From a virus (taxonomy: Duplodnaviria; Caudoviricetes), in IMG/VR virus record IMGVR_UViG_3300034126_000020, positions 96,001 through 160,000 of that record: DNA of 64,000 nt; one strand, given 5' to 3'. Under the pieces are notes generated by a model, which made no database searches, was not told the origin of the DNA, and saw only the letters and a list, made by a program, of their open reading frames with translations. This document shows, piece by piece, positions 34,115-34,229 of this stretch. The position numbers were made by a program, and so were the translations under genes. Position 1 is the first letter of the stretch, and the number at the start of each line of letters is the position of its first letter.

Positions 34115-34229
34115 TCGTCCTAGGGAGACTCGAACTCCCGACCTCTGCCGCGTTGTTAAGCCCCTGATTCCCCCGCTGAGGAGGGAGGGGCTTGAAAGGC
34201 AGCGCTCTAACCGACTGAGCTACAGGACT
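34115..34229 (-). tRNA. tRNA-like gene with a 41-nt extra hairpin in the anticodon loop
   Basis: canonical D-arm (GCTC/GAGC), CTGCC/GGCAG stem, AGGTC variable loop and GGGAG-TTCGAGT-CTCCC T-arm, but a 48-nt loop. Confidence 0.8.

Follow-up and report, generated by a model that had tools for sequence, protein, structure and literature searches.

A tRNA-shaped gene with a hairpin in its anticodon loop in the tRNA operon of a jumbo phage

The tRNA operon and its hairpin-bearing gene

The window, the whole 64,000-nucleotide stretch of DNA analyzed here, corresponds to bases 96001–160000 of a complete, terminally repeated phage record that has a length of 276,810 bp and a G+C content of 54% (a jumbo phage). 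The tRNA operon located in the window contains, in addition to ordinary tRNA genes, a tRNA-shaped gene with a canonical cloverleaf and a length of 118 nucleotides including its CCC tail. The locus can be divided into the following elements:

33966–34957, minus strand: tRNA operon with Tyr GUA, Asp GUC, Gln UUG, Asn GUU, the hairpin-bearing gene, and His GUG (tRNA and Rfam searches)
34112–34229, minus strand: whole tRNA-shaped gene (Rfam, 52.4 bits; ARAGORN with -i; alignment of ten alleles)
34198–34229, minus strand: 5' body, comprising the 5' strand of the acceptor stem (A1 unpaired with G72), the D arm, G26, and the 5' strand of the anticodon stem, CUGCC (sequence; covariation at 19:56 and in the acceptor and anticodon stems)
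34192–34197, minus strand: 5' segment of the loop, UUUCAA, positions 32–37 in the standard register with the anticodon UCA (UUUUCA, UUUUAA, UUAUCA, or UUUCAG in relatives)
34158–34193, minus strand: nested hairpin of 13 bp, the first two pairs of which use A36 and A37 (folding)
34151–34191, minus strand: canonical 41-nucleotide insert (37/38 in the standard register)
34150–34157, minus strand: 3' single-stranded tail AACAACGC, the final four bases of which form the junction motif A-C-R followed by Y38 (motif in all ten alleles)
34112–34149, minus strand: 3' body, comprising the 3' strand of the anticodon stem, GGCAG, the variable loop AGGUC, the T arm, the 3' strand of the acceptor stem, A73, and the CCC tail (Rfam, sequence, covariation)

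The Rfam tRNA model (RF00005) matches positions 34229 to 34115 of the minus strand with a score of 52.4 bits and leaves 43 nucleotides unaligned inside the anticodon loop. ARAGORN detects the gene solely with the intron option (-i), as a tRNA(UCA) with a 41-nucleotide intron. Direct reading shows canonical acceptor, D, anticodon, and T stems and an anticodon loop of 48 nucleotides between CUGCC and GGCAG. A1 faces G72, and the discriminator base (position 73) is an A that precedes the CCC tail. The three approaches bear out the coordinates, strand, and anatomy of the original prediction, including its 48-nucleotide loop, A1:G72 mismatch, and ACCC end.

Every ordinary tRNA of the operon (His, Asn, Asp, and Tyr with GUN anticodons, and Gln UUG) decodes NAN codons. 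Those with GUN anticodons are the four queuosine tRNAs, which colicin E5-type tRNases target as a set, and the tRNA set of the operon appears moulded by an anticodon nuclease. The operon spacers hold structured RNAs, which matched no Rfam family. A 28-nucleotide unit at 34383–34410 of the minus strand starts with GTTCACTGCC, continues with the loop CATTG, and then reads GGCAGCT. Of its 28 positions, 19 agree with the type I-F CRISPR repeat of Pseudomonas, among them the entire Cas6f-bound stem and the 5' flank. The unit is present as a single copy in the genome, within the tRNA operon, and a variant of it occurs in the related genome G002. Judged by its sequence, it is a candidate solitary type I-F repeat unit, that is, an RNA anti-CRISPR. 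The window also encodes two Macro-domain proteins (37562–38023 and 5403–6107, both on the minus strand), of which one lies at a distance of 3.3 kb from the operon. Macro domains process ADP-ribose derivatives, among them a by-product of yeast tRNA splicing.

Relatives and selection on the tRNA body

Relatives were sought by DNA polymerase, DNA patterns, and the neighbouring 127-amino-acid protein, together with exact-protein look-ups. Genomes of related giant phages of the Pseudomonas type and metagenome contigs, including ones from compost and soil, provided ten distinct alleles of the hairpin-bearing gene (window, L003, L004, L044, L291, L294, L295, L296, L297, and L299). The median protein identities of three whole relative genomes to this phage (G000) are 87%, 78%, and 63%, and the alleles therefore cover real evolutionary distance. 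The gene is missing from the most distant of the three genomes, G003, and from some other relatives, including the nearest isolate by DNA polymerase (85% identity), Pseudomonas phage pPa_SNUABM_DT01, the host of which is P. aeruginosa. Neither the Logan contigs nor the exact-protein look-ups yielded a second independent copy of the window allele; a Logan contig 99.86% identical to the window ends within tRNA-Asn, right before the hairpin-bearing gene. No bacterial homologues sharing the body plus the anticodon stem of the window were found. Bacterial tRNAs with an identical 5' half are specific for Ile, Phe, Met, Arg, Val, or Lys, never Glu, and the body resembles bacterial tRNAs of the Ile, Phe, Met, Arg, or Lys type, not Glu.

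The tRNA operon is a mosaic hot spot. In the related genome G001, a segment of approximately 200 nucleotides with a stray T-arm-like hairpin (L003, ~17115–17310, minus strand) lies between tRNA-Asn and the hairpin-bearing gene, and an irregular tRNA-like sequence occupies the His position downstream of the latter.

The tRNA body is under strong structural selection. In the ten-allele alignment, standard pairs make up 95.9% of the exon pair cells, both partners vary in 7 of 22 pairs, and the observed covariation was reached by none of 500 shuffles. Sliding the 3' partners by one to three columns reduced the pairing to 35–53%. The compensatory changes fall in four helices and one tertiary pair. 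The T-stem pair 51:63 shows three pair types among the alleles, the anticodon stem contains two compensated pairs (CUGCC/GGCAG, CCGUC/GACGG, CCGCC/GGCGG), and the tertiary elbow pair G19:C56 is replaced by A19:U56 in four alleles. A chance match was dismissed because of the number of distinct alleles, the proportion of exon pairs formed, and the outcome of the shuffles. Simple decay is unlikely because pairing is kept and covaries across the ten alleles. The original prediction had allowed for homologues in random decay, which would make the gene a pseudo-tRNA, and this is contradicted by the compensatory changes.

The anticodon stem of the window, CUGCC/GGCAG, is identical in all five pairs to the 5-bp type I-F repeat stem bound by Cas6f, and the clear repeat look-alike at 34383–34410 is positioned 160 nucleotides upstream in the same operon. 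The gene could thus be read as a tRNA-scaffolded CRISPR decoy, the RNA of which soaks up Cas6f like an RNA anti-CRISPR. However, whereas the neighbouring unit does match the repeat, the hairpin-bearing gene shares with it the 5-bp stem alone; the repeat flanks GUUCA and CUAAGAAA are absent, and the stems of other alleles are CCGUC/GACGG, CCGCC/GGCGG, or UCGCC/GGCGG. Furthermore, the window stem is presumably one transition away from the usual bacterial tRNA-Glu stem. We consider a Cas6f decoy very improbable.

The inserted hairpin, its junctions, and the anticodon

Every allele contains a hairpin of 10–14 bp at the same place, with a folding energy of −17 to −22 kcal/mol, in an insert of 30–41 nucleotides (n = 10), and the length of the anticodon loop ranges from 37 to 48 nucleotides. 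The arm of the window folds as a nested 13-bp hairpin with a z-score of −2.8 relative to shuffles, and the z-scores of the four arms tested range from −2.7 to −4.4. The hairpin interiors have no sequence kinship between allele groups and show compensatory change within a group. The hairpin of the window is also present in L294, and L295 has a compensatory variant of it, in which GCCCC/GGGGC is changed to GCCUC/GAGGC. The backgrounds of L291 and L294 are 95.8% identical and their exons are identical, and all 18 differences in the first 200 nucleotides are inside the insert. Since the differences are confined to it, the insert is exchangeable or fast-evolving, and cassette-like.

The position of the insert, the comparison of which in homologues had been proposed with the original prediction, is the same in all ten alleles, exactly 37/38 in the standard register, and excision leaves a legal 7-nucleotide loop in each of them. 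U32, U33, a purine at position 37, the hairpin-closing A-U pair, and the sequence A(−3)-C(−2)-R(−1) followed by a pyrimidine at position 38 are invariant. U32 is able to pair with A(−3), leaving C-R-Y as a 3-nucleotide bulge adjoining the anticodon stem.

The invariance of the junction motifs in the ten alleles, the compensatory changes in four helices and a tertiary pair, and the hairpins kept by compensation in genomes with a median protein identity of only 78–87% argue against a functionless relic or passive spacer. Such a relic would be a former tRNA-Glu gene that was disabled by an inserted palindrome and hitch-hikes in the operon, perhaps as a processing spacer only. It would fit the variability of the anticodon, the 5' segment of the loop, which is one base shorter in the window and L296, and the lack of the gene in G003, pPa_SNUABM_DT01, and other relatives; we regard it as improbable.

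At the DNA level, the gene could also be the footprint of a selfish element, in which a hairpin insert that moves together with a homing nuclease has disabled a surplus copy of a tRNA. Phage tRNA regions do contain free-standing nuclease genes, a GIY-YIG gene is located 11 kb away, and in L297 a gene with an SNase (staphylococcal-nuclease) domain (1619–2068) directly follows the hairpin-bearing RNA, in this one allele background only. However, most alleles, including that of the window, have no adjacent nuclease gene, the operon contains no intact twin tRNA, the hairpin motif is present in one copy per genome, and the U·G pairs found in the hairpins of some alleles fit pairing in the sense RNA. 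This footprint is the least probable of the explanations considered. A mobile hairpin repeat was rejected on the single copy per genome and on 70 IMG/VR pattern matches, which comprise two known relatives and 68 screened sequences that are not tRNA-like.

The anticodon differs among the alleles. In the standard register, positions 32–37 are UUUUCA with the anticodon UUC in four alleles, UUAUCA with AUC in two, UUUUAA with UUA in two, and UUUCAA (window) or UUUCAG (L296) with UCA in the remaining two. Each state is present in at least two divergent alleles and is therefore no sequencing slip. When the register is shifted so that the last stem base becomes position 32, the window reads CUUUCAA, which is Glu-like, and L294 and L295 read CUUUUAA, which we take to be exactly the loop of bacterial tRNA-Lys. 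The Glu(UUC)-like origin of the arm, suggested earlier from the window, gains support from the four alleles with UUUUCA and from the insert exactly at 37/38. In a decoding tRNA family, one body would not be expected to carry Glu, Asp-like, ochre, and opal anticodons in turn. Because the phage uses TGA as an ordinary stop, AUC and the two nonsense anticodons are implausible for a decoder.

The pair 1:72 is mismatched in eight of the ten alleles (A·G, G·G, or G·A), with both positions varying. The tail is CCC or CCU in all ten and never CCA, which is encoded by the adjacent Asn, Gln, Asp, and Tyr tRNAs; CCA could be added after transcription. Compared with a canonical tRNA, the family retains the cloverleaf and the tertiary contacts of the D and T arms, but lacks the 7-nucleotide loop, a constant anticodon, CCA, and, in eight alleles, the paired 1:72.

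Recoding of TGA, or the need for an opal suppressor, was rejected, as genetic code 11 gives 92% coding and TGA ends approximately 40% of the genes. In a codon-phase test, most of the apparent in-frame TGAs identified relative to relatives were antisense shadow frames, recognized because substitutions concentrate at codon position 1, or were without a clear frame signal. Outside the window, at position 266212 of G000, a 150-codon ORF contains an in-frame TGA that is TGG in G002 and TGT in G001. The substitutions on both sides of this TGA are third-position-biased, and it could belong to a truncated accessory gene or be a readthrough site.

A strict bulge-helix-bulge (BHB) cannot be drawn, in agreement with the original prediction. 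As read by eye, of the two 3-nucleotide bulges solely the 3' one (C-R-Y) can be seen, two to three of the four pairs of the central helix form, the 5' site is in or beside the base of the hairpin stem, and there are extra unpaired bases between the helices. The insert of 30–41 nucleotides with a single hairpin also differs from a group I intron, the ribozyme core of which comprises roughly 200 nucleotides or more, and no Rfam intron or ribozyme family matches the hairpin-bearing gene. Proposed searches for RtcB, an RNA ligase, or an endonuclease were carried out as six-frame Pfam searches of the complete 276.8-kb phage genome, and none was recognizable. EndA (PF01974) and RtcB (PF01139) were not found in the phage, whereas control genomes gave matches; Rnl2, a LigT-type 2H enzyme, and RNase III were not found, nor was Rnl1, the search for which had no positive control. 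Thirty-seven ORFs co-occur with the hairpin-bearing gene, being common to G001 and G002 and missing from G003. Ten of the larger ones, including an R2K ATP-grasp protein, a Macro-like protein, a GIY-YIG nuclease, and a DUF1353 protein, have no evident tie to the hairpin-bearing RNA, and the ORFs exclusive to gene carriers yielded no splicing-enzyme candidate. A jumbo-phage review describes RNA-repair systems as less frequent in the phages of its group 1 and attributes this to their nucleus-like compartment (PMC7824862).

These results bear on whether the insert is a short tRNA intron removed by proteins, either an as yet unrecognized phage enzyme or a host endonuclease together with an RtcB-type ligase, which we consider unlikely. 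The product would be tRNA(UUC) in most strains and tRNA with UUA, UCA, or AUC in others; the window gene would give an opal reader or, with the stem slipped to GCUGC/GCGGC, Glu(UUC). The insert at 37/38, the legal loop after its removal in all ten alleles, the conserved junction A-C-R before Y38, and the U32:A(−3) pair, which creates a 3-nucleotide bulge like that of a 3' splice site, are consistent with splicing, and the hairpin interior varies freely, as in known introns. The UUC alleles would round out the NAN-codon readers of the operon, and GAA is the commonest Glu codon of the phage (55% of Glu codons). Moreover, the small ORF at 266212 reads TGA in G000 but TGG in G002, and enigmatic tRNA introns have been reported in Lak megaphages (PMC6784885). 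However, orthologues differ in their anticodon, and AUC does not occur naturally as an anticodon in bacteria. A strict BHB is lacking; EndA, RtcB, Rnl1, Rnl2, and LigT were not found in the phage, and TGA is not recoded, with the other in-frame TGAs examined explained as above. The 1:72 mismatch, the missing CCA, the body that is not of the Glu type, and the sister RNAs of related phages without any anticodon also argue against an intron. A specific form of this explanation combines an intron spliced by phage or host endonuclease and ligase with strain-specific anticodons, including ochre UUA and, in the window, opal UCA, and makes the intron a switch that silences a dangerous tRNA until it is processed; we find this quite unlikely.

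A putative tRNA mimic and its known counterparts

The original prediction had offered an intron, a decoy, or a new RNA class as readings of the insert. The intron has lost ground because of the variable anticodon, the absence of CCA, the 1:72 mismatch, and the endonuclease and ligase not found, and a decoy or new class appears to fit better. Tentatively, with somewhat less than even confidence, we favour a functional non-decoding tRNA mimic, the hairpin of which would be a permanent extended anticodon arm and not an intron, and which is possibly a bait for a tRNA-directed host factor. The RNA would be transcribed as part of the tRNA operon; owing to its intact tRNA body, RNase P and 3' processing enzymes would be able to excise it and it would be stable. 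The bulged rod of approximately 20 bp that replaces the anticodon loop is expected to keep the RNA off the ribosome, and the purine-purine 1:72 mismatch and the CCC or CCU tail would make charging and binding by EF-Tu less favourable. It would display a U-rich Glu/Lys/Asp-like anticodon strand (UU-NNN-A) and the conserved 3-nucleotide bulge C-R-Y beside the anticodon stem. Its target, as a mimic or bait, may be a protein of host or phage that recognizes tRNA bodies with U35-type anticodon loops, for example an anticodon nuclease.

The mimic is supported by the selection on the fold in ten alleles, the variable anticodon, the retention of the hairpin despite complete turnover of its sequence, and the insert-only differences between L291 and L294. 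The lack of CCA, the unpaired 1:72, the ACCC-tailed relatives without an anticodon loop, and the absence of splicing enzymes from the searches of G000 point in the same direction. In contrast, the insertion exactly at 37/38, the 7-nucleotide loop with U33, purine 37, and pyrimidine 38 left by excision, and the resemblance of the U32:A(−3) pair and the 3-nucleotide bulge at the 3' junction to splice-site architecture speak against it, as does the completion of the NAN-reader set (His, Asn, Asp, Tyr, Gln) by the UUC alleles in a phage in which GAA is the commonest Glu codon.

The gene is similar to archaeal and eukaryotic genes with protein-spliced tRNA introns (BHB or ruler mechanism, 37/38) in its insert of 30–41 nucleotides at 37/38 that pairs with the anticodon-loop strand, the 3' junction, which has a 3-nucleotide bulge and a 32:(−3) pair, and the variable interior. 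It differs from them in the bacterial host, the lack of a strict BHB, the absence of EndA and ligase from the phage searches, the inconstant anticodon, and the missing CCA. In engineered tRNA scaffolds, the anticodon loop of an otherwise intact tRNA is exchanged for a foreign hairpin, which results in correct processing and stability; unlike these, the phage gene is natural and its payload has no known ligand. By description, the gene is also like YrlA (a Y RNA) and RNA C and RNA D of phage T4, which lie in the T4 tRNA region, in having a stable tRNA shape for processing or recognition without decoding. Unlike here, the ends of YrlA lie in the Ro-binding stem; the YrlA family (RF02553) matched with 21.7 bits against a cut-off of 69 bits, and no TROVE protein (PF05731) was found in G000 by six-frame Pfam search. 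The function of T4 RNA C and RNA D is still not known (PMC9697503). The tRNA inserts of Lak megaphages (PMC6784885) are likewise phage inserts other than known self-splicing introns, recognized only with eukaryote or intron settings, but those phages are AT-rich, infect Prevotella, and use an alternative genetic code. Here the insert sequence turns over completely. Phage tRNAs that counter tRNA-cleaving defences (PMC10264068), such as T5 tRNA-Lys against PARIS (PMC11464382), are comparable in that their operons are shaped by host anticodon nucleases and that change is concentrated in the anticodon loop. However, those are working tRNAs with point changes, whereas here there is an arm-sized insert and probably no decoding.

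No description of this hairpin-bearing tRNA-shaped family was found in the searched literature; the family is new among phage tRNA-like RNAs, as a variant, and if spliced its insert would be a new kind of intron of a bacterial virus. In bacteria and their viruses, the only introns known in tRNA genes are self-splicing ones, and tRNA-shaped decoys in phages have so far been mostly conjecture. The family comprises ten natural alleles with clear covariation, its anticodon strand varies between strains, and its insert is cassette-like. It is a tractable system in which to ask about phage tRNA mimicry against tRNA-directed host factors or about protein-dependent tRNA splicing in bacteria. It is also a warning for annotation, since phage tRNAs called in intron mode (SeC, Stop, Glu) may be non-decoding RNAs.

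Other tRNA-shaped RNAs are encoded by related phages. A gene of G005 (L005 15975–16049, minus strand, corresponding to G005 53293–53365) is tRNA-shaped and anticodon-less, with normal acceptor, D, and T arms, and G010 has a gene of the same kind (L217; G010 97791–97861). In both, UAAA-GGCC-loop-GGCC-AA(A)G stands in place of the anticodon arm, and a U-rich run comes after the ACCC tail; the gene is the sole tRNA-like gene of each of these phages. A 132-nucleotide tRNA-shaped RNA (L299 1073–1204), located just downstream of the hairpin-bearing gene, has a 7-bp extended anticodon stem, an insert of approximately 50 nucleotides, and an ACCC tail. A tRNA-like sequence in L010 (15695–15808, minus strand), from a phage with an 83% identical polymerase, contains an anticodon-loop insert of approximately 47 nucleotides and scores below the Rfam threshold. 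Finally, an unannotated tRNA-like element of pPa_SNUABM_DT01 (L046, ~16650–16730) combines a T arm and an acceptor stem of 7 bp without mismatch with an irregular middle part, and its tail is AACCC.
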